Source: Sulfurimonadaceae bacterium (GTDB lineage: Bacteria; Campylobacterota; Campylobacteria; Campylobacterales; Sulfurimonadaceae). From it: 32,968 nt of DNA. The notes below the pieces were generated by a model. It did no database searches and was not told the origin of the DNA. It saw nothing but the letters and a program-made list of their open reading frames with translations. The DNA lies in NCBI GenBank assembly GCA_041562555.1, contig JBFEXS010000014.1, positions 1 through 32,968 of the forward strand, read 5' to 3'. Shown one piece after another: positions 4,714 to 31,889 of the stretch. Each line of letters begins with the position of its first letter. Within the stretch, counting starts at the first letter, position 1. The position numbers and the translations under genes were made by a program.

Positions 4714-5101
4714 ACTTCAACTTCAAACTGCACATACGACACAGATGATCAATATTACTAAAGAGGTCAAAGAAGCCGTTATCACTTCCGGTGTAAAAGA
4801 GGGGATAGTAGTCGTATTTACCCCACATACCACAGCATCAGTAGTCCTTTTTGAGAATGTCGACCAAAACCTGCGACGTGATTATTTAAAGCTTTTAAAG
4901 ACGTACGTTTCTACACAGGAGTATTCCCACAAGGGCGGAAATGCTGCCGGTCATCTTAAAGCAGCTATGACGGGAGCTTCTGTGAGTATCCCCGTTGTAG
5001 ACGGTCATCCACTTTTTGGTGAATGGCAAGGAGCCTTTTTCTGTGAGTTTGACGGTCCTCGCGAGCAAAGGGATGTTATTATCAAAGTAATCAACGGCTG
5101 A
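4694..5101 (+). CDS. yjbQ: YjbQ/UPF0047 family protein (alternative start 4706)
   Basis: PHTTAS, NAAGHLKA and GEWQGAFFCEFDGPR are UPF0047 signatures. Confidence 0.88.
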   Translation: MTKTMTKLQLQTAHTTQMINITKEVKEAVITSGVKEGIVVVFTPHTTASVVLFENVDQNLRRDYLKLLKTYVSTQEYSHKGGNAAGHLKAAMTGASVSIPVVDGHPLFGEWQGAFFCEFDGPREQRDVIIKVING

Positions 5102-5114
5102 TACAGATATAGAC

Positions 5115-8707: not shown

Positions 8708-8711
8708 AAGG

Positions 8712-13881: not shown

Positions 13882-14625
13882 GTGATACGGATCAGTCTCT
13901 TGGTACTTCTTGTAATGCAAACGTTGACGGCGCAGCAGTTGACGATTGCCGTGGCAGCGAATGTCTCCTATGCGATTGAAGAGCTGAAAGGAGAGTTCTT
14001 AAAGGCTCATCCTGAAACCAAGATTGATATTATCTTGGGCAGTAGTGGGAAACTTTCCGCACAGATACAGCATGGGGCGCCTTACGGTCTATTTATGTCT
14101 GCGGACATGCAATATCCACAAAGCCTGTTCGACAGGGGATTGGCGATGGCGCCTCCCCAAGTGTATGCACAGGGGGCTTTGGCACTTTTTAGTGTAAGTC
14201 CAAGAGATTTTACGCTGGGTCTGGGGTTACTGGCGGATCAAGAGGTAGAGACTATTGCCTTGGCCAATCCAAAGACTGCTCCCTATGGACAGGCAGCGAT
14301 TGAAGCGATGGAAGATGCGGAGGTATTGGCGATAGCAAGGCCAAAGTTCATTTTTTCCGAATCAATATCACAAACACTCTCTTATGCGCTGACTGCTGTA
14401 CATATCGGGATCATATCCAAGGCGGCATTGTATAGTCATAGGATGCAGGCATATCATGAGGGTGTACATTGGAAAGAGATTGATATTAAACACTATGAGC
14501 CTATAAAGCAGGGAATCATCCTTCTTAAAACCTCTCATGAAGAACCTTTGTATAAGGCATTCTATGACTTTGTCCTGAGTGGGACGGGACAGGGGATCTT
14601 AAAGAAATACGGGTACATTATATAA
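13882..14625 (+). CDS. modA: Molybdate ABC transporter periplasmic binding protein
   Basis: AVAAN, GSSGKL..QI..GAP, FMSAD and ANPKTAPYG. Signal peptide; GTG start. Confidence 0.95.
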   Translation: MIRISLLVLLVMQTLTAQQLTIAVAANVSYAIEELKGEFLKAHPETKIDIILGSSGKLSAQIQHGAPYGLFMSADMQYPQSLFDRGLAMAPPQVYAQGALALFSVSPRDFTLGLGLLADQEVETIALANPKTAPYGQAAIEAMEDAEVLAIARPKFIFSESISQTLSYALTAVHIGIISKAALYSHRMQAYHEGVHWKEIDIKHYEPIKQGIILLKTSHEEPLYKAFYDFVLSGTGQGILKKYGYII

Positions 14626-15020
14626 TGAATTATATAAAAGCAGAGATCTCGGCGATTGACTCCATCGGTACTATCAACCTGGTCCATTTTAAGGTGCAAA
14701 CAGAGGTTATGAAGATGATCTCTCTGGAGTTGGATCAATCCCTGAAGGTAGGTACGCATGTACATTTGGGCGCGAAGGCAACCAATATCGCCATTGCCAA
14801 GACGTTCTCAGGAGAACTGAGTATCTCCAATCAGTTAAGCTCAGTGATCACTTCTTTGCAGATGGGAGAGTTACTGTGCAGTGTCAAGTTTGATTTTTTA
14901 GGGACATCGCTTGAGAGCATTATCACGAAAGACTCGGCAATGAAGATGAACTTGAAAGAGGGAGACGCTATCACCGCATTGATCAAGTCAAGTGAACTGT
15001 CGATTGTGGAGGTGTTATGA
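14625..15020 (+). CDS. Di-TOBE/Mop (molbindin-like) protein
   Basis: [27 protein letters not shown]. Lies between modA and modB, as in Campylobacter mod operons. Confidence 0.85.
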
Positions 15021-15703
15021 TGCAGGAATTTGATCTCACACCTTTTTTACTCTCATTTAAGCTAGCAGGGCTCACGACTGTAATCCTCTTTTTGATCGCT
15101 TTACCTTTGGCCTGGTGGCTTTCTCAAAGCCGGTGCCGATGCAAACCCTTTATAGAAGCGATTACTTCTTTGCCGATTGTATTACCTCCATCGGTGATAG
15201 GGTTTTATCTTTTGTATGCGCTTTCTTATAATTCGCCCATAGGAGCGTTCTTTCAAGAACAGTTTGGTATCAAACTTGTGTTCAATTTTACAGGGTTGGT
15301 GATCGCAAGCTGTTTTTACTCTTTTCCTTTTATGGTGCAGCCTTTGCAAAGCGGATTCGAGTCGATTAACAAAAACATACTCGAAGCTTCATATCTGGCG
15401 GGAAAATCAAAGTTTCAGACTTTGGTATATATTGCATTGCCTAATATCAAACCGGCACTTCTCACGGCACTTATTGTGACTTTTGCGCACACGGTAGGTG
15501 AATTCGGAGTTGTGCTGATGGTAGGGGGATCGATTCCGGGAGAAACGAAAGTGGCTTCTGTCGCGATTTATGAGTTTGTTGAGATCCTTGATTATAGCAT
15601 GGCACATATCTATTCGGGAATCATGATCGTGATGAGTTTTATCGTGCTCTTGGGTGTCTATAGTTTTAACCGTCGTCATTCACATAGATTGGGGACAGCC
15701 TGA
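15017..15703 (+). CDS. modB: Molybdate ABC transporter permease
   Basis: [18 protein letters not shown]-like loop (EASYLAG) and FAHTVGEFG. Confidence 0.95.
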
Positions 15704-16551
15704 TGCTTACAATCGATATTGAAAAAAAAATCCAGGGGAGCGAAGGGAAGATGGACCTGAAGGTCTGTCTTGAAATGGCAGAACAGGGGTTCATTGCACT
15801 CAGTGGTGAGAGTGGAGCCGGAAAGAGTACGCTACTTCGCATTTTGGCAGGGCTTGAAGATGCTAGCGGAAAGATCCAGTTGGGAGAGACATCATGGCTT
15901 GACGGTAAAAAGAGTCTTTCACCACAACAGCGTGACATAGGTTTTGTTTTTCAAGATTACGCACTTTTTGACAATATGAGTGTAGAACAAAACCTTCTTT
16001 ATGTCAGTAAAGACAAGGTGTTGGCGGAACATCTGTTGGAGTTGACCCATATGACAGAGTTGAAAAAACGTCGTCCTCACATGCTGAGCGGAGGTCAAAA
16101 ACAGAGGGTCTCCCTGTGCAGGGCTTTGATGCGCAGGCCTAAGCTGCTCTTGATGGATGAACCTTTGTCCGCGCTGGATCCGCAGATGCGTTCAAAGCTT
16201 CAACAGGATATTTTGAATCTGCACCAGGAATTTGGGACGACGACGATTATGGTCTCCCATGATCCGAGTGAAATATATAAGCTGGCAGATCGGGTGATCA
16301 CTCTCAAGCACGGTAAAGTAGTTCAGGATGGTACGGCCAAAGAGGTCTTCTTGCAGGCACGCGGAAGTCAGAAGTTCTCACTTCAAGGAGAGTTGCTCGA
16401 GATCGTAAAAGCGGATGTGATCTATATTGCCGTAGTCGCTATAGGACAGCAACTTGTGGAGATCGTCCTTGACGAAGATGAGGCAAAAGACCTTGAAATA
16501 GGGCAGCGTGTAGAGGTTAGTACGAAACCATTCTCTCCTTTTATCAACTAG
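15703..16551 (+). CDS. modC: Molybdate ABC transporter ATP-binding protein
   Basis: GESGAGKST, VFQDYALF, LSGGQKQR and LLLMDEP, with a C-terminal TOBE-like region. Confidence 0.92.
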   Translation: MLTIDIEKKIQGSEGKMDLKVCLEMAEQGFIALSGESGAGKSTLLRILAGLEDASGKIQLGETSWLDGKKSLSPQQRDIGFVFQDYALFDNMSVEQNLLYVSKDKVLAEHLLELTHMTELKKRRPHMLSGGQKQRVSLCRALMRRPKLLLMDEPLSALDPQMRSKLQQDILNLHQEFGTTTIMVSHDPSEIYKLADRVITLKHGKVVQDGTAKEVFLQARGSQKFSLQGELLEIVKADVIYIAVVAIGQQLVEIVLDEDEAKDLEIGQRVEVSTKPFSPFIN

Positions 16552-18257: not shown

Positions 18258-19364
18258 TCAGGTGTTAAAGTCCTGGTTGAGAAGATAGTAGACAGCTCTT
18301 CCTTTTCCGTGGGATGTTAAAAAGCCTTTATGTGCCAGGTCACTCAGATCACGGGCTGCGGTAGGCTTGGAGGTGTTAAAACGCTGTGCATAATAGGCCG
18401 TCTTTAACTGTTTTTTTTGTATGCCGTCTTCCAAAAGGAGACCTAAGAGCGAGCGTTGCCGTGCATTAAGGACATAGGATTGCATCCCTTCGGCGATGAG
18501 GCGTTTATATCGCAGGGTCTGCACTCGCAATAGGGCATTTCCCAATGCATTTTCAAACATCATCAAGTACCACTCGACCCAGGATGAGATGTCCATAGTA
18601 TCAGCAGTACAGTTTTGATCGAGCATCTCATAATAACTCTGTTTCATAGCGTGAATTTCATGGGCCAGTGTGAATAGATTCGAGGGGGCAAGGTCGGATC
18701 CGGAGAGAATATAGTCGCTGATATCTCTGGCCAGACGCCGATTCCCGTCATCGAAGGGATGAATGAGTAGGAACCAGAGATGGGCAATAGCAGATTTGAT
18801 GATGGCATCGATTTGATGCTCCTCATTGATCCATGTCAGAAGCTGCTGCATCTGATCATTTACGGTGGACGCAGGAGGGGCGATATAATGAACGATCTCA
18901 TGATGCCACGTTCCGGAGATGATCTTTACCTCTCCCTCTTCTTCTGTCCGAAACGAGGCGATTCTGACAGGATGAGATAGGTGTTGTTCCTGAATAAACA
19001 TGGCTTGATGCCAGGCGAAAAGGCGCGCTTTGCTTAAGGGCTCATCAGTGCGTTTGGTGTCCAATAAGATATCTAAAAGGGATTCGGGTTTCGGATCACG
19101 ATTGCGTTGGGGGTTATTGGGTCTGAATCGGCTTTCCAGGGCAATCCTGAGGTGTTTAGGCTCTATATGATCCCCTTCCAAAAGAGAAGTGGCAATGGCT
19201 TCTTGATAGAGGGACTCTTTTTGTAACAACAGGTATTCCCGCTTAGACAGAGTGGTCTCCGCCATTTTGAGTTGGCCCAATTGATGATACAGATGATTGA
19301 GGTTCTTATGCCCATAAGTAAAGTCAGGCCATTGCCTGTGTTGCCATTTCCACACTTTTTTCAT
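18258..19364 (-). CDS. Fic family protein (DUF4172-like N-terminus, C-terminal HTH) with a variant catalytic motif
   Basis: WKWQHRQWPDF N-terminus, alpha-inh-like TSLLEG, HPFDDGNRRLAR and HTH SKPTAARDLSDL..KG..GKGRAVYY. Confidence 0.9.
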   Translation of the reverse strand: MKKVWKWQHRQWPDFTYGHKNLNHLYHQLGQLKMAETTLSKREYLLLQKESLYQEAIATSLLEGDHIEPKHLRIALESRFRPNNPQRNRDPKPESLLDILLDTKRTDEPLSKARLFAWHQAMFIQEQHLSHPVRIASFRTEEEGEVKIISGTWHHEIVHYIAPPASTVNDQMQQLLTWINEEHQIDAIIKSAIAHLWFLLIHPFDDGNRRLARDISDYILSGSDLAPSNLFTLAHEIHAMKQSYYEMLDQNCTADTMDISSWVEWYLMMFENALGNALLRVQTLRYKRLIAEGMQSYVLNARQRSLLGLLLEDGIQKKQLKTAYYAQRFNTSKPTAARDLSDLAHKGFLTSHGKGRAVYYLLNQDFNT

Positions 19365-19565: not shown

Positions 19566-20564
19566 ATGAAACGTTTTTTGTGTATATCTTATTTTTGTCT
19601 GGTCTCACTCTTTGCTTCAGAGTCGGAATATCAACTTGGACATGGCCTTAAATTAGGTGAACTTCCTTTGTATATGGGAGGTTATTTCTCTTTGGATTAT
19701 GAACATGGATACGGTAAGGAACGTGTACTTGAACTGGACGAATTAGCCATTATGTTCTATGGCGAGTATGAGCATCTCTCGTATATGTTGGAGTTGGAGG
19801 GAGAAGAGATATACCGTGAATCTTTTGGTGATAATGCCAATGCAAGTCATCAGGACCGTGTACATCTTGAACGGCTTTATGTCAATTATAACTTCAATGA
19901 CAACTACGATCTAAAGACAGGTAAGTTCAACTCGATTATAGGGTTATGGAACCAAAATCCCATCAATGTACTCAGAGACACGAGTTCTAACCCCCGTATT
20001 ACGGAGCAGATCTTTCCCAAGTTTACTACAGGGGCAGAGTTTAAATACCAGCAGTTTGGCGAGGATAGGTTTACCCTTCACCTTATGGTCCAAGAGAGTG
20101 AAGATATGGATGAACTCTTTAACAGAGACGAGGTTTACAACAATTTTGATACGAATCGTCATTATGGCATGGGAACTTCTTTTTTGTATAAGCAAACGCT
20201 TTTTCAGTTTAATGCAGGCTATTTTGAAGTCAAGCCTGATCAAGAGTATACCTATCTCCTCGGAGCATTCCAGTATGAGTTGGATACATTGCGACTGCAA
20301 GGAGAGTTTGGTTCGCAGTTTGACGATGATGAGACAGTCGCGACTTCAGGGTATCTTCAAGGGGTGTACCGTATCGTCCAAGATCATGAGGGAATCCTCC
20401 GAGTGGAGAGTTGTGATGATGAAAAGACAGGGATAAAAGACAGTTTTGGTGTATTTGGATATACCTATAGACCCTATTATTCCATTGCCATCAAGAGTGA
20501 GTACCAGTGGCACTCCTATAAAAAGGAGAATAAGTTTCTTCTTTCATTCTCGGCACTATTTTAG
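19566..20564 (+). CDS. Putative outer-membrane beta-barrel (porin-like) protein
   Basis: Signal peptide, alternating aromatic-rich beta strands, LERLYVNY/KTGKFNSIIGLWN and a C-terminal ...KSEYQ...LSFSALF with terminal Phe. Confidence 0.75.
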   Translation: MKRFLCISYFCLVSLFASESEYQLGHGLKLGELPLYMGGYFSLDYEHGYGKERVLELDELAIMFYGEYEHLSYMLELEGEEIYRESFGDNANASHQDRVHLERLYVNYNFNDNYDLKTGKFNSIIGLWNQNPINVLRDTSSNPRITEQIFPKFTTGAEFKYQQFGEDRFTLHLMVQESEDMDELFNRDEVYNNFDTNRHYGMGTSFLYKQTLFQFNAGYFEVKPDQEYTYLLGAFQYELDTLRLQGEFGSQFDDDETVATSGYLQGVYRIVQDHEGILRVESCDDEKTGIKDSFGVFGYTYRPYYSIAIKSEYQWHSYKKENKFLLSFSALF

Positions 20565-20566
20565 GG

Positions 20567-20989
20567 ATGCGTGCCATGATGAAAGCCTTAAGTGTCATGC
20601 TCGTACTTTTAAGTGCACTCAATGCTGAACCGTTTGTGCTTGTGACCCACCCCGATAGTCCGATAGAAAGTCTGGATGAATCGCAGGTCAAGATGATCTA
20701 TCTCAAACAAAGACGGTACTGGGAAGGGGTCAAGCTCAAACCGATCAACCTTGCCGCAGAGAGTGATGTGCGTCACTCCTTTGAAAAGAATATCTTGAAA
20801 ATGAGTCATGCTCAGCTGGAGAGCTATTGGCTGAAACAGCATTACAAGGGGCTTCGACCTCCATACAGAGTCGAATCGGTTCAGAGCCTGTTGATGTTCA
20901 TTCAAAAAGTCGAAGGTGCAATCGGGTATATTCCCATAAGCAGTGTGAATGATGAGGTAAAAGTCATATACAAAGAGCAGATACAATGA
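20567..20989 (+). CDS. Small periplasmic protein, PstS/phosphate-binding-like single domain (start may be 20576 or 20579)
   Basis: Signal peptide, LVTHPDSPIESL..QVKMIYL and EGAIGYI resemble short type-2 periplasmic-binding-fold proteins. Confidence 0.7.
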   Translation: MRAMMKALSVMLVLLSALNAEPFVLVTHPDSPIESLDESQVKMIYLKQRRYWEGVKLKPINLAAESDVRHSFEKNILKMSHAQLESYWLKQHYKGLRPPYRVESVQSLLMFIQKVEGAIGYIPISSVNDEVKVIYKEQIQ

Positions 20990-23073
20990 AGCTGTTACGA
21001 TGGATCTTGCCGCAAACGTTGAAGACAAAGCTCTTGATAGCGCTGTTCAGTGTCGGCTTCTTTCCTTATTTGCTTATTCTTATCTATAGTCAAAACCTGG
21101 GAAAAGAGAAGATCCTGGAGTCTACACTGACGACGCATCATCTACAGATACATCAGATGAAACAGCAGTTGGAATCCCAGATGGTCACGTTGCAAAAAGA
21201 GCTTGGGTTTTTAGCCTCTTTGGATATGATGAATGATATGCTTGTCGCAGATATCGACAAGCGAATCGCCCAACTGCTTGTGCAAAAACACAAGGACCTC
21301 TCCCTTGATGTACATCTGTTTGCAATCGATAGGGATCTTCAGATGGTCTCTTCTTCTGATACCGAAAAGATACATAGTTTTCATTATCACAAAAAATTTT
21401 TACAGGCACAACACGAGAAAAAGAAATACTTTTTTACTTATAAGAGTATTGTCATGTTTACCCCCATTCACGGTAGTTTTGAAAAAGAACAGGATTTGGG
21501 ATATATGTTTATGGAGTATGCTTTTTCTAACTTCAAGTCTTTTACCGTGGATAAATATGGAGTACGTTCTACCATCTATAGTCGTGACAATGCACAGCAG
21601 GTCGGGTACCAACTGGATGAGCCATTGCTACAGGCCATTGATGATCAGTCAACGTACATAAACAAGCAGTATGTCATCATCAAAGAAGGGTTTGAAGGAG
21701 TGCTTCAAGGATGGTTTATCGTCTATGTCATCCAAAAAACAGAGGCCTTTAAATTTCTAGATACTTTTGTATATCTTATTTGGGCGCTGTTCGGATTTGG
21801 TACAGTGATCATCGCATTGATAGCTTCCTGGATCAGTAAACGTATTCTAGAGCCGATCGCCAAGTTGACAAAAGCTACAAAGTCCATCATATCAACACAG
21901 GACTATACGACGCAGGTGACAATCGAATCACAGGGAGAGATCACTGAACTTGCCCATGATTTCAACAGTATGGTTCAGGCGACGAATCATGCTTTTAGTG
22001 TTCTTGAAGAGGAGAACAGACTTCGACTCCTTCGTTTTACACAGTTGATCAATATCTTTAATCATCTTATCTCAACACAAAGTGAACGGGAGTGTATCGA
22101 GGTGGTTATGGACGAACTTCATCGTCTGATGCCTGAAAAAAGATTTTCTTTCTCCAGTGAATATGATGCATCGGAGCATGAGATCCCTCCGATGCAATGC
22201 ATGATGCTCTTCGTCAAAGACTTTGAAAAGGATACAGACGAGTTCTATGGAAAGATCACTTCTGAGACAGGGGATGCATCACATGATCCGAATGAGAACA
22301 CCTTTTATCAATCAATCGCGACTATGATCATGTTACAGTTAAACCAAATACGCCTTATTGAACGTACTCAGGAAGTTTCACGGGCAAAATCTACGTTTAT
22401 CTCTTTGATGTCTCATGAACTTCGTACTCCTTTACACACCATATTGAGTGCAGCACAATATTTGATCGGATATGAGAACACGACCCCTCAGCAGCAGGAT
22501 AAGATAGCCATTATGGAGTCTTCAGCTGAGCATCTTTTAGGTATGATCAACGATATTTTGGACCTTGTACAGATAGAAGCGGGCAAGGTGACAGCCAATA
22601 TCGAAGTACAGCAAAGTACAGCGTTGTATCTATCGATCAAAGAGACGGTGGAGATGCTGGAGGTACTGGCTGAGGAAAAAGGAATTAGCTTGACATTGGA
22701 AAACCGGCTTGACAGGGAAGAAGATGTCTTGCTTGATAAGCGCTTGTGTAAACAGATCGTGATGAACCTTATCTCCAATGCGATCAAGTTTACGGACAGC
22801 GGTTCGATCGAGGTCAGACTTGGAAAGTGTGAGAAATATATTTGTGTTGAGATCAAAGACAGCGGAATCGGAATCAGCAGTGAGAACCTAAAACGACTTT
22901 TTGAGGATTTTACACAGGTGAAAAATCGCAGTCAGAATAAACACAAAGGGAGCGGTTTAGGCCTGGCAATAAGCAGAAAACTTGCCCATCTGTTCAAGGC
23001 AGAACTGACTTTGGAAAGTGATGGGGAAGGTAAAGGAACAAGGGCTATACTCCAATTAGAAACTAATCTCTGA
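20986..23073 (+). CDS. Membrane sensor histidine kinase (periplasmic domain, HAMP, HisKA, HATPase)
   Basis: Two TM helices, HAMP (EITELAHDFNSM), H-box MSHELRTPL, N-box NLISNAIKFT, G1 DSGIG and G2 GSGLGLAIS. Confidence 0.95.
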   Translation: MKLLRWILPQTLKTKLLIALFSVGFFPYLLILIYSQNLGKEKILESTLTTHHLQIHQMKQQLESQMVTLQKELGFLASLDMMNDMLVADIDKRIAQLLVQKHKDLSLDVHLFAIDRDLQMVSSSDTEKIHSFHYHKKFLQAQHEKKKYFFTYKSIVMFTPIHGSFEKEQDLGYMFMEYAFSNFKSFTVDKYGVRSTIYSRDNAQQVGYQLDEPLLQAIDDQSTYINKQYVIIKEGFEGVLQGWFIVYVIQKTEAFKFLDTFVYLIWALFGFGTVIIALIASWISKRILEPIAKLTKATKSIISTQDYTTQVTIESQGEITELAHDFNSMVQATNHAFSVLEEENRLRLLRFTQLINIFNHLISTQSERECIEVVMDELHRLMPEKRFSFSSEYDASEHEIPPMQCMMLFVKDFEKDTDEFYGKITSETGDASHDPNENTFYQSIATMIMLQLNQIRLIERTQEVSRAKSTFISLMSHELRTPLHTILSAAQYLIGYENTTPQQQDKIAIMESSAEHLLGMINDILDLVQIEAGKVTANIEVQQSTALYLSIKETVEMLEVLAEEKGISLTLENRLDREEDVLLDKRLCKQIVMNLISNAIKFTDSGSIEVRLGKCEKYICVEIKDSGIGISSENLKRLFEDFTQVKNRSQNKHKGSGLGLAISRKLAHLFKAELTLESDGEGKGTRAILQLETNL

Positions 23074-23725
23074 TTGTATAACCTACACCGCGAACGGTTG
23101 TGATAAAGTTCTCTATATTGATCTTTTTTCGCAGGTTTTTAATGTGAACATCAACGAGGTTACTTTGTTTAAACCCATCATATTCACGGCATAGATGCTC
23201 ATTAAGCTGATAGCGGGTGAGTACGACATTCTTGTTTTGTAGAAGGATCTCAAGAAGATCAAATTCGGATTGGCTCAGTTTGACGGGTTCACCTTGTAGG
23301 CGGACATCCCTGCTTGTGGTATCCAAGGTTAAGTCACCAATGGAGATGACGGTACTCTTATGGGGTGATTCACGTCTTAAAAGAGCTCTGATCCGTGCCA
23401 ATAGTTCTATGTTGGAGTAAGGCTTGCAGAGATAATCATCACCCCCTGCATCCAGTACACGGACACGATCATCTACCTGGGTATTGGCTGAGAGCATAAG
23501 TACGGGCGTACTCAAGCCATCTTCACGTATTGATCTGAGAAGACTAAGGCCATCTCCATCCGGCAGGTTCCAATCAAGTAGAATAAGGTCAAAACGCTTT
23601 TCATCAATATATTTCAAGGCGCTTTCATAGTCATAGGCAACATCACAATGATAATGCTCATGTTCAAGCAGTTGTTTGAGCTGATCTGCTATGGCAATCT
23701 CATCTTCTACGATCAGTAGATACAT
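23063..23725 (-). CDS. OmpR/PhoB-family response regulator
   Basis: LIVEDE, LLDWNLPDGDG, DDYLCKPY and wHTH VDVHIKNLRKK..TVRGVGY. Confidence 0.96.
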   Translation of the reverse strand: MYLLIVEDEIAIADQLKQLLEHEHYHCDVAYDYESALKYIDEKRFDLILLDWNLPDGDGLSLLRSIREDGLSTPVLMLSANTQVDDRVRVLDAGGDDYLCKPYSNIELLARIRALLRRESPHKSTVISIGDLTLDTTSRDVRLQGEPVKLSQSEFDLLEILLQNKNVVLTRYQLNEHLCREYDGFKQSNLVDVHIKNLRKKINIENFITTVRGVGYTIRD

Positions 23726-23790
23726 CCAGAACCTTTTTATGTGAATAGTGTATTATAAAGTGTGTCAGCTTAATGGATTGTATCCGCCTT

Positions 23791-23822
23791 TTCATCAAAT
23801 CTTCATAATTGTCCTTTATACT
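23791..23822 (+). promoter_or_regulatory. Putative OmpR-type binding site (TTCAT-n6-TTCAT) 10 nt upstream of a TATACT -10
   Basis: TTCAT at 23791-23795 and 23802-23806; TATACT at 23817-23822, with a second TATACT at 23830-23835. Confidence 0.5.
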
Positions 23823-23854
23823 TCTTGTATATACTATAAAAAAGGAGAGCTATA

Positions 23855-24892
23855 ATGCAACTCCCAACAAAAATACCTGTGCATCAGTGGGCGTTTTTAT
23901 TTCTGTTCGCCTCAGAGTTTACCTATTATCTACTGATACTGCAGACAGGTATCGTTGAGTATCACCATTCCCTTATGGAAGAGATATGGATAATCCCTGT
24001 AGGAGGGATCTTGGGTATTATCCTCTCCATAGCGGCACACAAAGAGCGTCAGTGGTTGATACCATCTTTATTGTTGATACAGTTGATCTTGTCTTTTGAT
24101 TATGCACATGCTGGTGTTCTTGAGTTGTTCGTACTCGGCCTCATCAGTGGATTGACCGCACCGATGCTGATCGCAAGAATAGACCATTTTTGGATGGTGA
24201 TCGCTGCCTTGGCCCTCTCATACAGTTACGGGACGTACTATTTTGATGTTCCTGCCCAAGATCGTACAGGCATTGCAGTTTTCCTGTCCCTGGTTGCTTT
24301 TACTACCTCTTTGTTCTCTCAGATGAAGCAGACAAAGAGCCAGACAACACAGATGACACTTTTTGGTGCGGGTACCATCTTTTTGTGGCTGCTTCTGGAT
24401 GCATCACTTTTTGAGACGCTTTCACGTAATGATATGATGAAGATATGGGGAGAAGGCAGTTTTACCTATAGTATCATCGCCTCACATATCCTTGGACTGG
24501 TAGCGGCGTACAAAGCCAGAGACTGGAAACATACAGAAGTTTTTTTATTGGGATTATTCACGGTGACCTATTTGGTGTATAGTATAGGTTGGCAATGGGG
24601 TTTAGGTGTGGTTTATCCGTTTGTGATTTCGTACTACAACGTGATTATCCTCAAGGAGCTGATGCGTCTGTCTTATGTACTATTGGCAGTGATGGCATTA
24701 AGCCTATGGATGGCTTCGGGCTCTGGGCTTATGATAGCACTATCGGGTTCTTTTGTCTCCGCCTGGATTGCACTGGGGGCATTGGGAGTGATCTATGTCT
24801 ATAAAAAACTGGATCTGCCTATGATGCAGATGGCAGAAGAGGTATTTTCACGTATACAGCTGTATATACAGGGTATGTATGAGATGAAATAA
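23855..24892 (+). CDS. Polytopic membrane protein of unknown function (about 12 short TM segments, possibly MFS-like)
   Basis: Almost entirely hydrophobic, with SD AAGGAG. No family motif recognised. Confidence 0.75.
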   Translation: MQLPTKIPVHQWAFLFLFASEFTYYLLILQTGIVEYHHSLMEEIWIIPVGGILGIILSIAAHKERQWLIPSLLLIQLILSFDYAHAGVLELFVLGLISGLTAPMLIARIDHFWMVIAALALSYSYGTYYFDVPAQDRTGIAVFLSLVAFTTSLFSQMKQTKSQTTQMTLFGAGTIFLWLLLDASLFETLSRNDMMKIWGEGSFTYSIIASHILGLVAAYKARDWKHTEVFLLGLFTVTYLVYSIGWQWGLGVVYPFVISYYNVIILKELMRLSYVLLAVMALSLWMASGSGLMIALSGSFVSAWIALGALGVIYVYKKLDLPMMQMAEEVFSRIQLYIQGMYEMK

Positions 24893-24943
24893 GGTTTCTT
24901 CCCACCGGGTCGAATCTGTCAATTCTAATTTGAAGGAGAGATT

Positions 24944-25471
24944 ATGAAAAAGTTTTTATTACTTGTTGCCATGAGTGTGTCAGTACTGATGGGAGGCAAT
25001 CTCAGTGTAGTCACGGGTGTTGTGAAAGCACATACCGAGGTCTTTGGTGATTCACAGATAGACCCTGAAACCAGCGGTATTACATCGCATTTGAGTATAG
25101 CAGAGGGTATCGAATCGTTGAGCGGTTCAGTTGACATTTCTATGAAAGGCCTTAGAAGCGATGAAGAGAGCCGGGATGAGAATATGATGGAGACGATCGA
25201 AAGTGAGAAGTTCCCTTTTGCCACCTATACACTCACAAAAGTTGAAAAAGTCGAAATCGGTTACCTGATTCATGGAGTTCTGGATTTTCACGGAGTGAAA
25301 AATCCATTGACGATGGTCGTAGACATCGAGCAAGAGGGTAAAACAGTGATGATCAAAGGCAAGAGCTCGTTTAAGATGTCAAGTTTTGGTGTTGAACCTC
25401 CTGTTCTTCTGTTTTTGACGGTGCGCGATAAGGTTGATATCATTGTCGATGCAACATTTAAAGAGGAGTAA
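24944..25471 (+). CDS. YceI-like periplasmic lipid/polyisoprenoid-binding protein
   Basis: Signal peptide, SDEESRDENM, EKFP.ATY, GVLDFHGVKNP and MSSFGVEPP. Confidence 0.85.
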   Translation: MKKFLLLVAMSVSVLMGGNLSVVTGVVKAHTEVFGDSQIDPETSGITSHLSIAEGIESLSGSVDISMKGLRSDEESRDENMMETIESEKFPFATYTLTKVEKVEIGYLIHGVLDFHGVKNPLTMVVDIEQEGKTVMIKGKSSFKMSSFGVEPPVLLFLTVRDKVDIIVDATFKEE

Positions 25472-25479
25472 GAACACGG

Positions 25480-26550
25480 ATGTTCAAATCCTTTTTAAAG
25501 TATAGGTACAAGACGAGTCTGATCCTGATTTCGGCGACGGCGGCTATTGCATCGATCTTCCTTATTACGGCTTTAGGCAACGGTATCATCAGCATGTATG
25601 CATCCATGCTTAAAACAGACGGGGACATCATTGTGATGCAAAAGGGCGTTGCGGATACTTTTTTCAGCGATGTTGACCGTTCGTTGATAGACCCTATATC
25701 AAAGATAGAAGGTGTCAAAGAGGCACAGGGTGTCATCGTGGGTGTCGGTGCTATCGGAGCAGTCCCTATTGCCGGCATCTATGGGGTGACACAAAACCGT
25801 TTGTCAAACTATACCTTGAGTCAGGGAAGCTATCCCAAAGAGGGTGAAGTGATGGTGGGTGACACCGTTGCATCCATATTGAAGCGTCCGGAGGTCATTA
25901 CCTTGCTCGGGACGGATTTTCAGGTATCGGGTATCTATGAAAGTGATATCGGTTTCGAAAATGGCGGTGTCGTCATTCCTATAGGTGATGCGCAAAAGCT
26001 CTTCAAGAAGAGTGCTTCATTCTTGCTGGTATCTCTGGAGGATATTCAAAAAGATAATGAAGTGATCATTCGTCAGATTCAATCTCTGAATGAAGGAATA
26101 GAGGTAAAATCCACTACGGAGTTTATTGACAATTATAATCAGTTTAAGATCATACGTATTTCCAGCGGCGTCATCGCTTCGATCTCTTTTTTTATGGGGT
26201 TTTTGGCTATCGTGAGTCTCATGAGTATGATGATCAATGACAGACGGTATGAATTTGGTATCAAGCGGGCAGTCGGAATCTCAAAGTCACGCATAGTACT
26301 GCACATCGTGGTGGAGGTCATCGTGTTGACCCTGATAGCATTTGTCCTGGCCTACGGTATCAGTCTTGTTTTACTGGAGCAGCTTCAGCATATTGAGAAG
26401 TTTCAAGGCTATCTTAGCGGACGGATCGATATGGTGCTTTTCATAGAGCTTCTTCTTGGTTCGGTAAGCATGGCATTGATAGGAGCACTTATTCCTGCAC
26501 TACTTGCTGCACGGGTAGATCCTATTATATTGATCAACAGGGGCCAGTAG
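25480..26550 (+). CDS. ABC transporter permease, MacB/FtsX/LolE type
   Basis: TM1, periplasmic domain, then DRRYEFGIKRAVG and PALLAARVDP. Confidence 0.9.
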   Translation: MFKSFLKYRYKTSLILISATAAIASIFLITALGNGIISMYASMLKTDGDIIVMQKGVADTFFSDVDRSLIDPISKIEGVKEAQGVIVGVGAIGAVPIAGIYGVTQNRLSNYTLSQGSYPKEGEVMVGDTVASILKRPEVITLLGTDFQVSGIYESDIGFENGGVVIPIGDAQKLFKKSASFLLVSLEDIQKDNEVIIRQIQSLNEGIEVKSTTEFIDNYNQFKIIRISSGVIASISFFMGFLAIVSLMSMMINDRRYEFGIKRAVGISKSRIVLHIVVEVIVLTLIAFVLAYGISLVLLEQLQHIEKFQGYLSGRIDMVLFIELLLGSVSMALIGALIPALLAARVDPIILINRGQ

Positions 26551-27162
26551 ATGATAGAGATGAAGCATGTCAGTCATGACTATGATCAGGAACGTATATT
26601 ACATAATATCACCCTGCATATCCCTGATGATCAATTTACGGTGATTACCGGTGAAAGCGGGAGTGGGAAGTCCACCCTGCTCTCGATAATCTCTACATTG
26701 TTGAATCCGACAGAGGGTGAGCTTCTGTTCGACGGAAAGTCGGTAGAGGATTTGGGCAATATCAATCATTTCCGCAATCAGGAGATAGGTTTTGTCTTTC
26801 AGTTCCATTATCTGATCTCGCATCTGACAGTCTATGAGAACATTGCTATGGTCACACAGCGCCCCAAAGAGGAAATTGATGCACTGTTGGATCGCCTCGA
26901 TATCGCACAACTGCAACATAAATATCCTGATCAGATATCCGGTGGCCAGCGTCAACGTGCTGCGATTGCCCGTGCCGTTATCAACCAGCCCAAATATATC
27001 TTTGCAGATGAGCCTACGGGAAACTTGGATTCTAAAAACTCGGACAAGGTGTTTGAATTATTACGAAGTCTCGATGCTACGGTCATCGTAGCCACCCATG
27101 ACCACTCTCACATCAGATCAGACGATACGATTATCTCCCTGAAGGATGGACACTTATGTTAA
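26551..27162 (+). CDS. ABC transporter ATP-binding protein, LolD/MacB type
   Basis: GESGSGKST, GFVFQFHYL, ISGGQRQR and ADEPTGNLD. Confidence 0.95.
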   Translation: MIEMKHVSHDYDQERILHNITLHIPDDQFTVITGESGSGKSTLLSIISTLLNPTEGELLFDGKSVEDLGNINHFRNQEIGFVFQFHYLISHLTVYENIAMVTQRPKEEIDALLDRLDIAQLQHKYPDQISGGQRQRAAIARAVINQPKYIFADEPTGNLDSKNSDKVFELLRSLDATVIVATHDHSHIRSDDTIISLKDGHLC

Positions 27163-28712
27163 AGAGACACATCTCTATCTCGTACGTTTTTTTAATTTTG
27201 GCTGCCTTATTTGGCCTGGTATATGCATTTCAGTTGATTGATATCGGTACAGGGCTAATGCGCCCGGACATTGCACGTAGCTTGCACATCTCACTGATGT
27301 TGTACGGATTTATGCCGTTGATGCTGTCGGTACTTCCTTTTGCCTTGTTTGACAAAGAGAATATTCTTAAAGATGAGGCCCTGGGGTATTTAGAAAAGTA
27401 TTTCATGCTCTGGTATGTCTTTTTAGTATTTATGATCATCTCACTACTTGCCGGGAATACACGCGCACTTCCTTTTTATGATTTTCCGTATGCGCTAAAC
27501 GGCATTCTTGCCTTTGCCGGTGTATTTTATATCATTGCACTTTTCAAGAGTATCCAACACTACGCCGTCAAACCGCTGTGGGTAAAGGTGTCTCTTGTAT
27601 TGGTGACGATCAGTCCGTTTATGCTTTTACTCCTTATGAACCCTGAATACGGCCAGGTCGAACAGATGCATTACGGGCCACACGGGGACAATACCCTGGG
27701 TATGAGCTTTGCCCTGATGGCGATCTATTACCTTGCGATCAAGCTTTCTTCGCCCAAGGTCTCTTTTGAGACTCGTTGGCATATCCTTTGGATCATCCCT
27801 CTCGGGTTTTATCTGCTCAGTGTCTTGTATCGAAGTTTTATAGGACCTATCAGTTATGAAGCGGAGTGGTTCTTACAGTATCTGACACTTCTGTATATCC
27901 CGACACTGTATCGATGGTGGAAGGATGCAGGCTTGAATATAAAAACACATATGACGCTCTTTATCTCCATCGTGGCATTTATTTTGATCGATGTGGAAGG
28001 AAACATTCTGTTTATCCCTGAGCTTCGGGCAATTTTTCACCGCAATGACCTGGTTGTCGGACATTCACATATTGCGGTAGGAATAGGATTACTGTTTCTT
28101 GCTTTTGCCATTGTCGAGTCCTATTTTAAATTATCTCTGATCAAGCGTTACGGATTGGTCCTTACGCTTGGTTTGATGTCACTCGTGCTTAGTATCAGCG
28201 GGTTCTCGCAAGCAGGATATATCGAGACAGACATCATGTCGATGTGGCAGTGGCGAACATTTTTTGGTTTACTTTTTTTTATTATTGTTGTACTGTCAAG
28301 CGGATATATACAGAGTAAGGACCTGCGTCAGCTAACGCCTTTGAAGCTGTATCATTTGGTCGCCTTCAGTTCCGATGGATTGGGTGGTCTGATGTTGATC
28401 TTCTTTGGGGAAGCACTGTTTTCCTTAATCGGACAGGCTTTTGTAGGTAGCTATCAGTATATTGTCTTTGGTTTTGTAGCAGGTGTCGGAATATCGCACC
28501 TTATCGGATATCTGTTTGCGGCGTATGCTCATTCTATGGGTCTGGCGACATCCGTTATTCGAATTATAACTGCAGCAGGTTTTTTCGCGCTTTATCAGGC
28601 GGGAACATTGGGATGGATCGCCTTAGTGATCTCAGCTTTTGACCTTGCTTTTGCCCTGGTCTATTTACTTTATTTACAAAAGGACAATCATGAAAAAACT
28701 CGTGTGGCTTAG
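27156..28712 (+). CDS. Divergent heme-copper oxidase subunit I-like (cbb3 CcoN-like) membrane protein lacking the helix-VII His-His pair, with a C-terminal extension of about 4 TM helices
   Basis: RSLH44 resembles CcoN RPLH; YGPH176GDNTLG resembles YGHNAVG; EGN..FHRNDLVVGH303SH305 resembles EGP..SHYTDWTIGHVH; SGFSQ and WRTFFG resemble helices XI and XII. Confidence 0.78.
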   Translation: MLKRHISISYVFLILAALFGLVYAFQLIDIGTGLMRPDIARSLHISLMLYGFMPLMLSVLPFALFDKENILKDEALGYLEKYFMLWYVFLVFMIISLLAGNTRALPFYDFPYALNGILAFAGVFYIIALFKSIQHYAVKPLWVKVSLVLVTISPFMLLLLMNPEYGQVEQMHYGPHGDNTLGMSFALMAIYYLAIKLSSPKVSFETRWHILWIIPLGFYLLSVLYRSFIGPISYEAEWFLQYLTLLYIPTLYRWWKDAGLNIKTHMTLFISIVAFILIDVEGNILFIPELRAIFHRNDLVVGHSHIAVGIGLLFLAFAIVESYFKLSLIKRYGLVLTLGLMSLVLSISGFSQAGYIETDIMSMWQWRTFFGLLFFIIVVLSSGYIQSKDLRQLTPLKLYHLVAFSSDGLGGLMLIFFGEALFSLIGQAFVGSYQYIVFGFVAGVGISHLIGYLFAAYAHSMGLATSVIRIITAAGFFALYQAGTLGWIALVISAFDLAFALVYLLYLQKDNHEKTRVA

Positions 28713-29142
28713 CCTGATGTGTGCAGTAGGACTGTATGCACGTTTGGAGGTGGAAAAGGATTTTCCGGCGATCACCCTTCCGGATCAATTTGAAAAACAA
28801 CATACGATTTCTAAGGATCAAAAGATAATCATCATGGCCTTTGAAAAGGATATCTCGGTGGCGGTAAATGACTTCCTCAAAGAGAAGCCTTCAGGCTATC
28901 TGGATGAACACCATGCCAAGTATATCTCCGATATCAGTTCGATGCCATCTGTGATCACATGGATGTTTGCGATGCCAAAGATGAAAAAATACCCGTTTTC
29001 GCTGATGCTGATCAATGATGATTCGGGCAAGCAGTTCGATAGAGAAGCAGGGAAAATAACGGTGTATAGACTCCGGGAACAGGAGATCAGGTCCATAGAG
29101 TTTATTTCACCGAAAGATATCGCTTCGATTTTTAAAGAGTAA
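28690..29142 (+). CDS. Exported thioredoxin-like-fold protein without CxxC (YtfJ/ATP10-like)
   Basis: SD AAGGA then ATG 28690 (MKKLVW signal peptide). FPAITLPDQF resembles AhpC/TSA N-termini; the mature part has no Cys. Confidence 0.65.
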   Translation: MKKLVWLSLMCAVGLYARLEVEKDFPAITLPDQFEKQHTISKDQKIIIMAFEKDISVAVNDFLKEKPSGYLDEHHAKYISDISSMPSVITWMFAMPKMKKYPFSLMLINDDSGKQFDREAGKITVYRLREQEIRSIEFISPKDIASIFKE

Positions 29143-29160: not shown

Positions 29161-29182
29161 GTATGTCGGATACACTCCGACA
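29161..29182 (+). repeat. GTAT-led palindrome (REP-like) between convergent genes
   Basis: GTA-TGTCGGA-TACAC-TCCGACA. Confidence 0.5.
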
Positions 29183-29190
29183 AGGCCATG

Positions 29191-29207
29191 AAGGGCTTTC
29201 CCTTTTT
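29191..29207 (+). terminator. Weak intrinsic terminator candidate
   Basis: AAGGG-CTTT-CCCTT followed by T residues, downstream of the six-gene operon. Confidence 0.35.
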
Positions 29208-29233: not shown

Positions 29234-31168
29234 TTAGGAATCATAATCCCTTAATGTCAGTGGTAAACGCAGAGTCGCTGCGACAGCATGAAGGATCTCC
29301 ATGTCAAAGTGGGAGATATTGTCATCTTCGCTTAAACAGGTGACGACCATCTGAAGGACTTTCTTTCGTACCGGTGCCTTTGCCTGTGAGATCAAGGAAA
29401 TCGATTTGTCAAGTTGTGTGTAATCGATGCTCTCAAAAGCAATGAAGCGTAAGATATCGATTCCGGCCGCCTTTGTCGCTGCATCAAAGAAGTGTTTGGC
29501 TTTGTCGTTGTCTAATGTCTGTGTGCGTGTCAATATGGAGAGAAAGGTCTGGACTTCACCTGTGATGTCTCGTATGTGATTGTAGGTCTCTTTTGTCGGT
29601 TTTTTCAAGGCAAAGGATATATCCAACGGATTCAATACAATGTGTTTGAGGTTCCATTCGAAAAAAGAGATCTGATCATCCATATCGATAAAGGCGATGG
29701 CAAAAGCTCTGAACTGTCTGTATTGTTGCAAAGACATCATCTTTAAAGAGCTGATGCTCAGCTGCATCAGATGCAGACGTGTACTGTGGGAGAGAGATTT
29801 AAGAAGGGTAAATGCCTCCTCCGTTTTTTCCAGCAGCCTGAGAGGGGTATGCTCAAGGAGCTGAAGTTGTCTTTCACGAATTGTATGAAAATCACTGCAT
29901 AATAAGGCGAGGATGACGGCTTGTGCACTGAGTGGGTTCTTCGTCATCTCCTGCAGCTGTGCAGGCAGGGAATGTAGGATAGAGGCGGCTTCATCGATCT
30001 GTTGGGGAGAGGGTTGCCCGATATGCTCGATACTTTCGAGTGCGGTAGCAACAGCCACCGTCTGCATTATCTTCCTTTTGCGTTCTTCCGGTTGATAATG
30101 TCTGGCAGTTTTACGGGTGGTTTTTTTTGGCGTAATAAAACTGCCGTTCCAGCGGGGGTCAATCCTTAGGATGCGCTCTTTCAGGGGAGGGTGTGTAGAA
30201 AAGAGGTTGTCCCAAAAGTCCTTGACACCGTCAGAAAAATAGAGATGACTGAAGGTGCCGGCTGCGGGGGTCTTGATCACAGATCCACCGGCATGGCCAC
30301 CTATCTTTTTCAGTGCATTGGCAATACCATCGGGATAGCGTGTAAACTGTACTGCAGAGGCGTCAGCGAGGTATTCACGCTGTTGACTGATCAGTGCTTT
30401 GATCCATTCGCCCACCGTTGTACCAACTGCTCCGATCACAGTGAAGCCTATACCGATAAGGACAATAGCGCCAACGGCATCACCGCCTTTTTTATTATTA
30501 CTTCCCCGACTGGATCGGACTTTCACATTATCCAGTGCATTGAGTATTCCCCGACCGATGAGCCCTATTAGCAAGATTCCATGCAATAATCCCGTAATAT
30601 GGAGGTTTAGACGCATGTCCCCATTGAATATATGACTGAATTCATGGGCGATGACCCCTTGAAGTTCTTCTCTGTTGAGAAGTTCGACAGAGCCTTTTGT
30701 AATTCCGATCACAGCATCTTCATAGCTTAATCCCGCGGCAAAGGCATTGATACCGGGTTGATCGAGTATATAGATCGGAGGTGCCGGTATACCGGAAGCG
30801 ATAGCCATCTCATCGACTACGTTAATCAGTATACGTTCTTGTTCATCGGAGGTATTTGAAGGCAGTAGCCTTCCTCCAAGGGCTTCAGCGACAACGTGTC
30901 CTCCCGAAGAAAGCTGGTTGAGTTTATAGATACTTCCCAGCGCAACAATCGCGATGACAATGCCCGAAGCCTTGTAAAAGTGTTCCCACGCAAATAGTTG
31001 CATGAGCTGACCTGGGGAGACAACCAGTTCTCCCGTGTTGTAATAGGCCAGTACCATCAATAAAAAGATATTCGTCACAAGGATGATACCGCCTACTCCC
31101 GATAAGAAGAGAAGATGCAATACAAAGGTGCTCTGCCTAGCCTTTCTCTGTGCCTCAAAAAAGTTCAT
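29234..31168 (-). CDS. M48 family zinc metallopeptidase (long HtpX-like form with C-terminal helical extension)
   Basis: INAFAAG, GVIAHEFSH (HExxH), REYLADASAV and THPPLKERI. Confidence 0.93.
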   Translation of the reverse strand: MNFFEAQRKARQSTFVLHLLFLSGVGGIILVTNIFLLMVLAYYNTGELVVSPGQLMQLFAWEHFYKASGIVIAIVALGSIYKLNQLSSGGHVVAEALGGRLLPSNTSDEQERILINVVDEMAIASGIPAPPIYILDQPGINAFAAGLSYEDAVIGITKGSVELLNREELQGVIAHEFSHIFNGDMRLNLHITGLLHGILLIGLIGRGILNALDNVKVRSSRGSNNKKGGDAVGAIVLIGIGFTVIGAVGTTVGEWIKALISQQREYLADASAVQFTRYPDGIANALKKIGGHAGGSVIKTPAAGTFSHLYFSDGVKDFWDNLFSTHPPLKERILRIDPRWNGSFITPKKTTRKTARHYQPEERKRKIMQTVAVATALESIEHIGQPSPQQIDEAASILHSLPAQLQEMTKNPLSAQAVILALLCSDFHTIRERQLQLLEHTPLRLLEKTEEAFTLLKSLSHSTRLHLMQLSISSLKMMSLQQYRQFRAFAIAFIDMDDQISFFEWNLKHIVLNPLDISFALKKPTKETYNHIRDITGEVQTFLSILTRTQTLDNDKAKHFFDAATKAAGIDILRFIAFESIDYTQLDKSISLISQAKAPVRKKVLQMVVTCLSEDDNISHFDMEILHAVAATLRLPLTLRDYDS

Positions 31169-31175
31169 CTAGGTA

Positions 31176-31766
31176 TTAAAACTCAATCTTTGGCGCATCT
31201 TGCATCTGAACTGAATCATCGAATTCAAGCATTGCCGCATCGTTTGGATGTCCAAAGCTCGTGCTGAAAAGCACTTGAGGGAATGACTGACGGTAGGTAT
31301 TATAGGACATGACGGAGTCGTTGTAAAACTGTCGTGCGAAGGCGACCTTGTTTTCAGTTGTAGCGACTTCCTCATGCAGTTTGATCATGTTTTCGTTGGC
31401 CTTGAGATCAGGATAGTCCTCCATGACAAAATTCAGTTTTCCCAGAGCACCTACGAGGCCTTGCTCTGCTTGGGCCAGTCCTTCGATCATAGCCGGGTCA
31501 GATGGGTCTTTTGTCGCTTGTGAGAGGCTTTTGGAAGCGAGATTACGTGCAGAGATGACTGCTTCAAGTGTCTCACTCTCATGTTTGAGGTAGCCCTTCG
31601 CGATCTCCACAAGGGAGGGGATAAGGTCATAGCGGCGTTTGAGCTGTACCTCAATCTGTGCAAATCCATTAAGATAATGGTTTTTGAGGGCAACTAAACG
31701 ATTGTATATGTTCATGATATATAATCCAAGTGCAAAAAGGATCACAACGGTAATGATAGTGGACAT
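31176..31766 (-). CDS. lemA: LemA family protein
   Basis: N-terminal TM, YNRLV, QLKRRYDLIP, YPDLKAN, ENKVAFARQFYND. The start at 31766 has SD GGAG; the ORF-track start at 31805 is probably too long. Confidence 0.95.
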   Translation of the reverse strand: MSTIITVVILFALGLYIMNIYNRLVALKNHYLNGFAQIEVQLKRRYDLIPSLVEIAKGYLKHESETLEAVISARNLASKSLSQATKDPSDPAMIEGLAQAEQGLVGALGKLNFVMEDYPDLKANENMIKLHEEVATTENKVAFARQFYNDSVMSYNTYRQSFPQVLFSTSFGHPNDAAMLEFDDSVQMQDAPKIEF

Positions 31767-31889
31767 AAGCTTGCTCCATACGTGGTTTTTATAGATTATA
31801 GTCAATCTATTATTAAATCAAATATAACATAGGCCGGTCTAAATCTGTGGCTATACCAGACCTGTCCGGCGTGAAGAAGGGGTCTCCGC

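Follow-up and report, generated by a model that had tools for sequence, protein, structure and literature searches.

The haem-copper oxidase (HCO) scaffold is the core of aerobic respiration and of denitrification. A membrane haem protein of another kind, a b-type dihaem cytochrome of the b561 fold, is encoded together with the exported protein YceI in the yceJ-yceI pair of Escherichia coli. In the available part of PMC11214002, every HCO family described keeps at least two of the three active-site histidines, gNOR being the first family in which even one of them is replaced; O2 reduction is not expected of those families that lack the tyrosine, and eNOR, sNOR, nNOR and gNOR encode homologues of the CuA-type second subunit. 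Here we describe a cluster of ten genes, at positions 19566-29142 of a contig of a Sulfurimonadaceae bacterium (JBFEXS010000014.1, GenBank assembly GCA_041562555.1), which encodes a divergent HCO-like protein together with an ATP-binding cassette (ABC) transporter, a YceI-family protein and a two-component system; the whole 32,968-nucleotide stretch analysed is called the window. We read the cluster as a two-component-controlled envelope module, and give this reading as a whole a probability of about 0.4. The regulatory and anatomical part of it is likely, whereas the functional part is tentative.

The HCO-like protein (518 amino acids (aa); gene at 27156-28712, + strand) is hardly recognisable from its sequence. 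Its match to Pfam COX1 (E 2.5e-4, 20.5 bits) lies below the 34.8 cut-off, and some of its relatives bear a precomputed PF00115 match. A phmmer search of 1.84 billion representatives returned 52 matches, of which the full-length ones are at least 40% identical and the others are short fragments, and none of the 52 looks like a member of another HCO family. The relatives listed by a word-indexed search (120, at 47-100% identity) are mostly unnamed or 'hypothetical', with Sulfurovum, Hydrogenimonas, Sulfuricurvum and Malaciobacter among the sources and a single one labelled cbb3 subunit I. Judged by these sequence comparisons the family is tight and isolated. When the family profile was searched against PDB sequences, no oxidase came up, and the relation is visible only by fold. 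An AlphaFold2 model built from a 37-row alignment (predicted local distance difference test, pLDDT, 85.8) matched cbb3 CcoN in Foldseek (E ~4e-6, template-modelling score 0.55-0.63, probability 1.00). Comparison of the model with VIA-align gave Z 26.6-28.4 and a root-mean-square deviation of 3.6-4.9 over 368-388 aligned residues of NorB and CcoN, the top partners being cNOR NorB (4xyd_A, 3o0r_B) and cbb3 CcoN (9g6b_A, 8smr_E, 3mk7_A); Z fell to ~22 for qNOR and ~20 for A-type oxidases. The match always spans model residues 1 to ~390, and residues ~395-518 form additional helices. As modelled, the protein has the twelve-helix fold of HCO subunit I.

To map the haem ligands, the family was aligned by hhalign with 20 CcoN sequences, including this genome's own, and these with 3mk7; the ligand roles given to the mapped CcoN histidines are those of the cbb3 structure. 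H44 falls on the position of the helix-II haem histidine. The motif FHRNDLVVGHxH falls on AHFTEWIVGHVH of CcoN, so that H303 and H305 match the two helix-X haem histidines (the GHVH pair). The predicted haem ligands are therefore all present, with H44 and H305 as the low-spin pair and H303 as the high-spin ligand. The situation at the second metal is different: H176 sits one column off the helix-VI histidine, the helix-VII His-His pair of CcoN aligns to Gly-Pro, and no histidine is conserved in residues 177-294 among 42 family sequences. Of the predicted three-histidine CuB/FeB site, H176 alone remains. The column of the cross-link tyrosine (Y225 in the window protein) varies between Y, L, I and H across the family, which would thus lack the cross-linked tyrosine of the A, B and C oxygen reductases. 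All 42 sequences have H44, H176, H295, H303, H305 and H448, together with an unchanging loop, G174-P-H-G-D-N-T-L-G-M-S184, which is modelled at pLDDT <50. Near the distal side is a group of polar residues that do not vary either (H176, D178, N179, R226, Y234, E237 and Q241), and the ~120-residue C-terminal extension carries the invariant residues D407, H448, R469 and D496.

Compared with CcoN and NorB (3mk7, 8smr, 9g6b, 4xyd, 3o0r), the protein shares the twelve-helix core, the haem histidines and an H-x2-D-x4-H-x-H motif, but it is ~13% identical, has neither the His-His pair of helix VII nor a conserved cross-link tyrosine, and adds the C-terminal extension. Its gene is in an operon with an ABC transporter and not with ccoOQP or norC, and the canonical ccoN of this genome sits on a different contig. 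No cytochrome c partner (CcoO/CcoP or NorC) is encoded with it, and the CxxCH motif is absent from the eight window proteins scanned, a set that leaves aside the regulator and the ATPase. The fold of the protein, labelled 'CcoN-like' in the first-pass annotation, is nearest to NorB and CcoN, without their CuB His-His pair. The family resembles eNOR, sNOR, gNOR, nNOR, NOD and a putative N2O reductase in being divergent and tyrosine-less, with an altered active site, as these are described in the accessible sections of PMC11214002. It differs from them in that two histidines are replaced and no CuA-type subunit is encoded; this comparison is by description, and the family may be among the sequences of that paper. 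Since both predicted haem sites are kept and no CuB/FeB centre is predicted, the protein would not be a proton-pumping O2 or NO reductase; with two haems kept and the binuclear centre missing, we read it as a non-respiratory redox enzyme. As a separate matter, scarcity of cysteine in the envelope proteins was considered as a stress signature and dropped, given that 131 of 847 long open reading frames (ORFs) of the genome and the canonical CcoN are cysteine-free and that family members have 0-5 cysteines.

Proteins such as CcoA (a member of the major facilitator superfamily, MFS), CcoI, SenC and PCuAC act in the assembly of cbb3 oxidases. By analogy, the HCO-like protein could be a terminal or detoxifying reductase (of NO, N2O, H2O2 or O2), working with haem alone or with a metal held by non-histidine ligands, and the ABC, MFS, YceI and small exported proteins could be its maturation or cofactor-supply chain. 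The nearest folds, cNOR and cbb3, the invariance of all haem ligands and of the polar distal set, and the permanent contiguity and overlap of the permease, ATPase and HCO-like genes all fit this explanation, and other tyrosine-less HCO families have been proposed as NO or N2O reductases, according to the part of PMC11214002 available. Yet two of the three active-site histidines are gone, against the single substitution by which gNOR stands out in that source. Neither a cytochrome c nor a cupredoxin partner is present, the scan for CxxCH being that of the eight window proteins, the maturation roles are an analogy, and the accessory proteins do not have the Cys/His/Met motifs of copper chaperones. 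We consider a reductase unlikely.

The genes that accompany the HCO-like gene form a compact operon of six on the + strand, with junctions of 51, 8, 0, -7 and -23 nt, and a consensus scan alone placed a terminator-like hairpin 3' of the last gene (29182-29199, +). The ten ORFs of the cluster, their coordinates, these gaps and an 11-nt overlap between convergent kinase and regulator genes (23063-23073), all given by the first-pass annotation, were borne out by the ORF list, and its labels for YceI, the MacB-type permease, the ATPase and the OmpR regulator were matched by Pfam domains. The first gene (23855-24892, +) had been called a membrane protein, a label that is corrected here. Its 345-aa product has no Pfam or NCBIfam match, and its AlphaFold2 model (pLDDT 88.3) returned MFS proteins in Foldseek (E ~1e-4; FLVCR2 among them) and Z 24-25 over 305-313 of the 345 residues in VIA, tied among SV2A, SotB, EfpA, MelB and MFSD2A. 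It is modelled as a twelve-helix MFS fold, though without a match to any MFS sequence model. Conserved polar residues lie within its helices, and those that are invariant include Q30, D182, E187, R191, H211 and N262. The second gene (24944-25471, +) encodes a 175-aa exported protein of the YceI family (PF04264, E 9e-17, 62.3 bits against a cut-off of 23.7), which scores only 24 bits against the 232 cut-off of the E. coli YceI equivalog model. As in yceJ-yceI, a YceI protein, a binder of lipids or isoprenoids, is encoded with a membrane haem protein; here, however, the haem partner has the HCO fold and not that of cytochrome b561, and YceI is paired with the MFS-fold protein.

The permease (25480-26550, +; 356 aa) matches FtsX (PF02687, E 6e-17, 62.3 bits) and the periplasmic MacB_PCD domain (PF12704, E 4.9e-12, 47 bits) above cut-off, and its nearest solved chains are 5xu1_M and MacB. 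The ATPase (26551-27162, +; 203 aa) matches ABC_tran (PF00005, E 4e-36, 125 bits, above cut-off), with LolD and FtsE as its best NCBIfam models, each below cut-off. By their domains the two are predicted to form a type VII ABC transporter, which has in common with MacB, LolCDE and FtsEX the four-helix FtsX permease, the periplasmic MacB_PCD domain and the separate LolD/FtsE-like ATPase. Contrary to those systems, it comes without a fusion protein, TolC, LolA/B or EnvC-type partner. Pfam scans of the window's predicted genes gave no membrane-fusion or TolC-type match, which together with the CxxCH scan agrees with the earlier statement that cytochrome c subunit, fusion protein and TolC are all missing, and a MacAB-TolC tripartite pump is not encoded among these genes. 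What is constant here is an HCO-like gene immediately downstream, and the equivalog models of known type VII systems score far below cut-off. The last gene (28690-29142, +) encodes a 150-aa exported protein whose N-terminus is signal-like and which has no cysteine beyond this signal and no Pfam or NCBIfam family match; its ATG at 28690 is backed by the family alignment, the listed ORF beginning at a TTG at 28639. The description of this protein as thioredoxin-like was not confirmed: AhpC-TSA and YtfJ are feature-space neighbours at 0.90, a weak lead, and hhalign to Redoxin returned a probability of 0.2.

To assess whether the genes belong together, we compared 42 loci of Campylobacterota: the window and 41 others, among them three same-genus or named-record loci (L013, L014, L011), the rest being genome stretches; one genome gives two of the 42. 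These two (L071 and L072) are cluster copies on two contigs, with HCO-like proteins both ~45% identical to the window's. Of 401 genomes sampled, 37 carry the HCO-like family, which is spread over 15 of 64 genera and was found in none of the genomes of the two largest families sampled (0/118 and 0/158); it thus marks a particular subset of Campylobacterota. Permease, ATPase and HCO-like genes occur in this fixed order in 42 of 42 loci, always contiguous and overlapping. In 38 of the 42, YceI comes directly after the MFS-fold gene; three of the other four end at contig edges, and in L079 YceI is missing at this position. The gene of the small exported protein is found in 33 loci, after the HCO-like gene, before the permease or after YceI, and is missing from nine. 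A phosphoesterase gene adjoins the cluster in 37 loci (29 Metallophos, 8 metallo-beta-lactamase (MBL)-fold); the two Metallophos proteins scanned score far below cut-off for the YaeI and LpxG models and have no signal or membrane segment. Our results show that the operon is conserved as a unit, as had been predicted, its genes being kept together over 42 loci and three gene orders. Literature searches found no description of the cluster and matched it to no characterised pathway, in line with its first labelling as undescribed. In five loci (L022:1375-2607, -, and relatives in L018, L019, L024 and L080) we also noticed that YceI is followed by a protein (410 aa) without family match whose N-terminus is signal-like, 62-100% identical between loci.

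The sensor genes are less constant. A regulator 36-81% identical to that of the window adjoins the cluster in 19 of the 42 loci. Five of them have it upstream and divergent, the arrangement seen in the window, and three of these five also have the porin-like gene, a gene for a protein resembling periplasmic binding proteins (PBPs) and the long kinase gene. In thirteen it stands at the operon's downstream end; a conserved kinase of a 458-aa type follows it in twelve (51-100% identical to the example in L078, the one scanned, which scores as CopS/CusS-like and whose further neighbours, an ABC-3 permease and a Redoxin, are common to just one other locus). In L080, porin, PBP-like, kinase and regulator genes sit between the HCO-like and MFS genes, inside the operon. 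The porin-like, PBP-like and long kinase trio adjoins the cluster in four of the 42 loci, the PBP-like gene always accompanying the other two. The 'ten-gene system' first proposed is hence one lineage variant: kinase type and accessory genes vary by lineage.

The regulator of the window (23063-23725, -; 220 aa) has a receiver (Response_reg, 105.6 bits) and a winged-helix Trans_reg_C domain (73 bits), and is assigned on these domains to the OmpR/PhoB family. Its gene and the first operon gene point apart and are separated by 129 bp. In this interval, 64 bp before the first operon start codon, lies the direct repeat TTCATCAAATCTTCAT (23791-23806, +), the window's only match to TTCAT-N6-TTCAT and the putative operator of the regulator; direct repeats of this type are what OmpR/PhoB-family regulators bind. 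Taken alone the repeat is not significant, since 23 of 100 shuffles yield at least one match. It is invariant, though, in a three-region intergenic alignment, and among the 42 loci the exact repeat occurs 44 times in 743 kb, both strands counted. In 24 of the 42 it starts 53-91 bp ahead of the leading core gene, which is not always the same one, on the strand of the operon, and one further locus has it with one mismatch per repeat. Often there are three half-sites spaced 11 bp apart, and several loci hold a second copy a short way upstream of their regulator gene. Where the regulator directly flanks the core genes, in 18 loci, the positioned repeat is present without exception. In the nineteenth regulator locus (L081) the repeat is beside the regulator, ~5.6 kb upstream, ahead of four inserted genes; in six loci it is present without an adjacent regulator. 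Its position is kept over three gene orders and at least four families. A genome-wide scan of the source genome gave 19 matches against ~8.6 expected and no second convincing target. Both the co-conservation of the operon and its link to the regulator are thus supported by the comparison, the latter as a prediction.

Some observations made around the repeat are reported here in their own right. On contig C100 of the source genome (~5101-5116, -) a second TTCAT-N6-TTCAT sequence has the gene of another OmpR-family regulator on one side and a 910-aa ORF on the other. The four inserted genes (L015:2496-7811 and the same region of L081) are on the same strand, between the regulator and repeat and the MFS-fold gene; they encode an MtrC/MtrF-like multihaem cytochrome (753 aa), a GT2 glycosyltransferase, a 221-aa protein and a PMT/ArnT-like glycosyltransferase, and may share the cluster's regulon. 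In L017 the kinase reading frame (14002-15699) has a stop codon near its 5' end.

HrtBA, MacAB and FLVCR are known to expel or relocate haem or porphyrin. A handling system for tetrapyrroles, in which the ABC and MFS proteins do the same, YceI is the carrier and the HCO-like protein a sink or modifier, with induction when metal stress upsets haem synthesis, would make sense of FLVCR2 among the MFS fold matches. It would also suit L017, where a ChaN-type haem-binding gene (8058-8819, -; PF04187, E 4.9e-22) is divergent from the operon with the operator region in common, as well as the copper-type operator and the copper-type kinase and regulator of other lineages described below. However, of eight loci scanned for flanking genes just one has the adjacent ChaN, the solved relatives of the permease do not include HrtB at E up to 1, and the MFS matches are tied over many subfamilies. 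Such a role is improbable in our view.

The likeness of the operator to copper systems is the following. The repeat contains AAATCTTCA, whose reverse complement is the half-site of the CopR box TGAAGATTTnnTGAAGATTT, a box established by electrophoretic mobility shift assay in Corynebacterium glutamicum (accessible portion of PMC3140484). As that portion describes it, the CopRS operator too is a direct repeat with an 11-bp period and a half-site with the same motif. In common with CopRS and with CusRS/HprRS, the OmpR-family regulator is divergent from its target operon, and the kinase and regulator of L078 come near the heavy-metal cut-offs: with 265.2 against 292.55 (TIGR01386) and 256.4 against 279.2 (TIGR01387) they are just below, this being the only downstream-type pair scanned. 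In contrast, the window's kinase (148.6 against 292.55) and regulator (171.5 against 279.2) both stay well under these values, the kinase has a large dCache-like sensor with PBP-like and porin-like companions, and none of the operon genes is of a kind known from copper regulons (P-type ATPase, multicopper oxidase). SulRS was also considered as a match and rejected: in the available text of PMC12936845 it is another system, whose TTACA repeats adjoin sox genes. Since the operator is of the copper type, as are the kinase and regulator of other lineages, metal- or oxidant-type envelope stress is probably the usual trigger.

The sensor module of the window itself starts with a 332-aa predicted outer-membrane beta-barrel (19566-20564, +), a weak match to Porin_O_P (E 0.0019, 17.9 bits against a 20.9 cut-off) whose L017 orthologue scores 21.4 bits. 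Next is the PBP-like gene (20567-20989, +), single-copy in the genome, for a small exported protein of 140 aa with a signal peptide (hydrophobic N-terminal segment at residues 7-28); it weakly matches the PstS-family model TIGR02136 (E 1.6e-6), covering only positions 124-235 of 295. The sensor histidine kinase (20986-23073, +; 695 aa) consists of a transmembrane segment (14-36), a periplasmic domain of ~220 aa, a second transmembrane segment (257-285), HAMP, ~130 unassigned aa, HisKA and HATPase_c, with a dCache_1 match below cut-off (E 8e-4). The best NCBIfam model of the regulator is PhoB (TIGR02154; 192.2 bits against 296.2), which eight paralogues in the genome likewise match, one of them ~1 kb from pstS. 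In a FastTree phylogeny, printed without support values, the cluster-linked regulators form two neighbouring groups, and the window's own is the sole paralogue of this genome inside either.

These features raise a further possibility, a Pho-type phosphate-starvation module with a PhoB-like regulator, a pho-box-like repeat and sensing through PstS-like and phosphate-porin-like proteins, the operon and its phosphoesterases remodelling phospholipids. PhoB as top model for the regulator, the Porin_O_P and PstS-family hints, the phosphoesterases of both folds adjoining in 37 of 42 loci and a Na/Pi transporter gene ~1.3 kb upstream of the porin-like gene would all be accounted for. Nevertheless, the PhoB, Porin_O_P and PstS-family matches were all reported as below cut-off, the equally PhoB-like regulator ~1 kb from the only full PstS gene (contig C5) is the likelier Pho regulator, and the kinase and regulator of L078, from another gene order, score as heavy-metal type. 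We hold this module, like tetrapyrrole handling, to be quite unlikely.

Returning to the two-component-controlled envelope module, we propose that the kinase uses its large periplasmic domain to detect a signal in the periplasm, probably assisted by the exported PBP-like protein and the Porin_O_P-like channel, and would then phosphorylate the regulator, which would bind the TTCAT repeat and switch on the operon. The HCO-like protein would probably be a quinol-linked redox enzyme at the periplasmic face of the membrane. Handling of a lipophilic molecule is pointed to by the constant permease-ATPase-HCO block, the MFS-YceI pair and the frequent adjacent cytoplasmic phosphoesterase: the partners would handle an envelope molecule such as an isoprenoid, a quinone, a lipid or a tetrapyrrole, which the MFS protein may flip, the type VII ABC transporter extract and YceI carry, while the phosphoesterase may produce or trim it in most genomes. 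The idea first put forward, of a haem enzyme whose lipophilic substrate is moved by the ABC and YceI proteins, is tentative; support for it, only indirect, comes from the MFS-YceI pair and from the adjacent phosphoesterases (LpxG/YaeI-like or MBL-fold). A bolder version, which we regard as rather doubtful, is that a copper-independent HCO branch was recruited from respiration to redox chemistry on a membrane lipid, quinone or tetrapyrrole, physically coupled to a type VII ABC mechanotransmitter and served by an MFS flippase and a YceI carrier, with lineage-specific metal or oxidant sensors switching it on via a common operator.

Several observations weigh against this reading. Seventeen of the 42 loci do not have the repeat, and none of the 17 has the regulator, so that regulation does not belong to the conserved core. 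The control of the operon by the regulator, as first predicted, is thus backed by the related regulator in 19 loci and by the repeat in 24, but by neither in 17. The same 17 operons would be expected if the sensor genes were mere neighbours, the regulator acting on itself or on other genes and the operon being constitutive or controlled elsewhere. We judge this very improbable, because the position of the repeat is kept across gene orders and families, the repeat coincides with the regulator at every directly flanking locus, and the sensor module of L080 is embedded in the operon. Furthermore, the window's kinase is of a different type from CopS-like kinases, so the window may respond to another signal; the Porin_O_P-like and PstS-like proteins beside this kinase would suggest an oxyanion, and its dCache-like sensor, with PBP-like and porin-like partners, may read another signal than metal or oxidant stress. 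The window has no adjacent phosphoesterase gene. Haem binding and the loss of the second metal are predicted from an alignment at ~13% identity, and the low-pLDDT loop of H176 could nonetheless bind a metal through H176, D178, N179 and E237. Finally, the window's YceI is only distantly related to the solved chains (E 0.014-0.36), and it is for those distant relatives that ligands are known.

The remainder of the window holds other features. Upstream of the cluster, between the Na/Pi cotransporter and porin-like genes, is a gene for a Fic/DOC protein with DUF4172 and a C-terminal helix-turn-helix (18258-19364, -). Further upstream are a 786-aa HD-GYP-type (HD_5) protein with a Cache/PDC-like sensor domain (6347-8707, +), a TonB-dependent receptor followed by a PepSY_TM protein (8712-12109, -) and a four-gene ABC import set with a TOBE-domain protein, resembling molybdate/tungstate uptake (13882-16551, +). 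Downstream, a LemA gene is paired with that of a 644-aa M48/HtpX-like protease (29234-31805, -); LemA is also near the cluster in two distant loci (L020:6680-8212 and L024:8477-10008), paired there with DUF3137.

The source names of the closest relatives (Sulfurovum, Hydrogenimonas, Sulfurimonas, Sulfuricurvum and Malaciobacter) suggest that the HCO-like family belongs to free-living lineages. The regulator of the window, together with a precise candidate operator, opens the inducing signal to direct test, and by way of the signal the function as well. If our reading is true, the HCO scaffold would be used beyond the reduction of O2 and NO, in a protein that has kept both haems and dropped two histidines, and always with an ABC extractor alongside.

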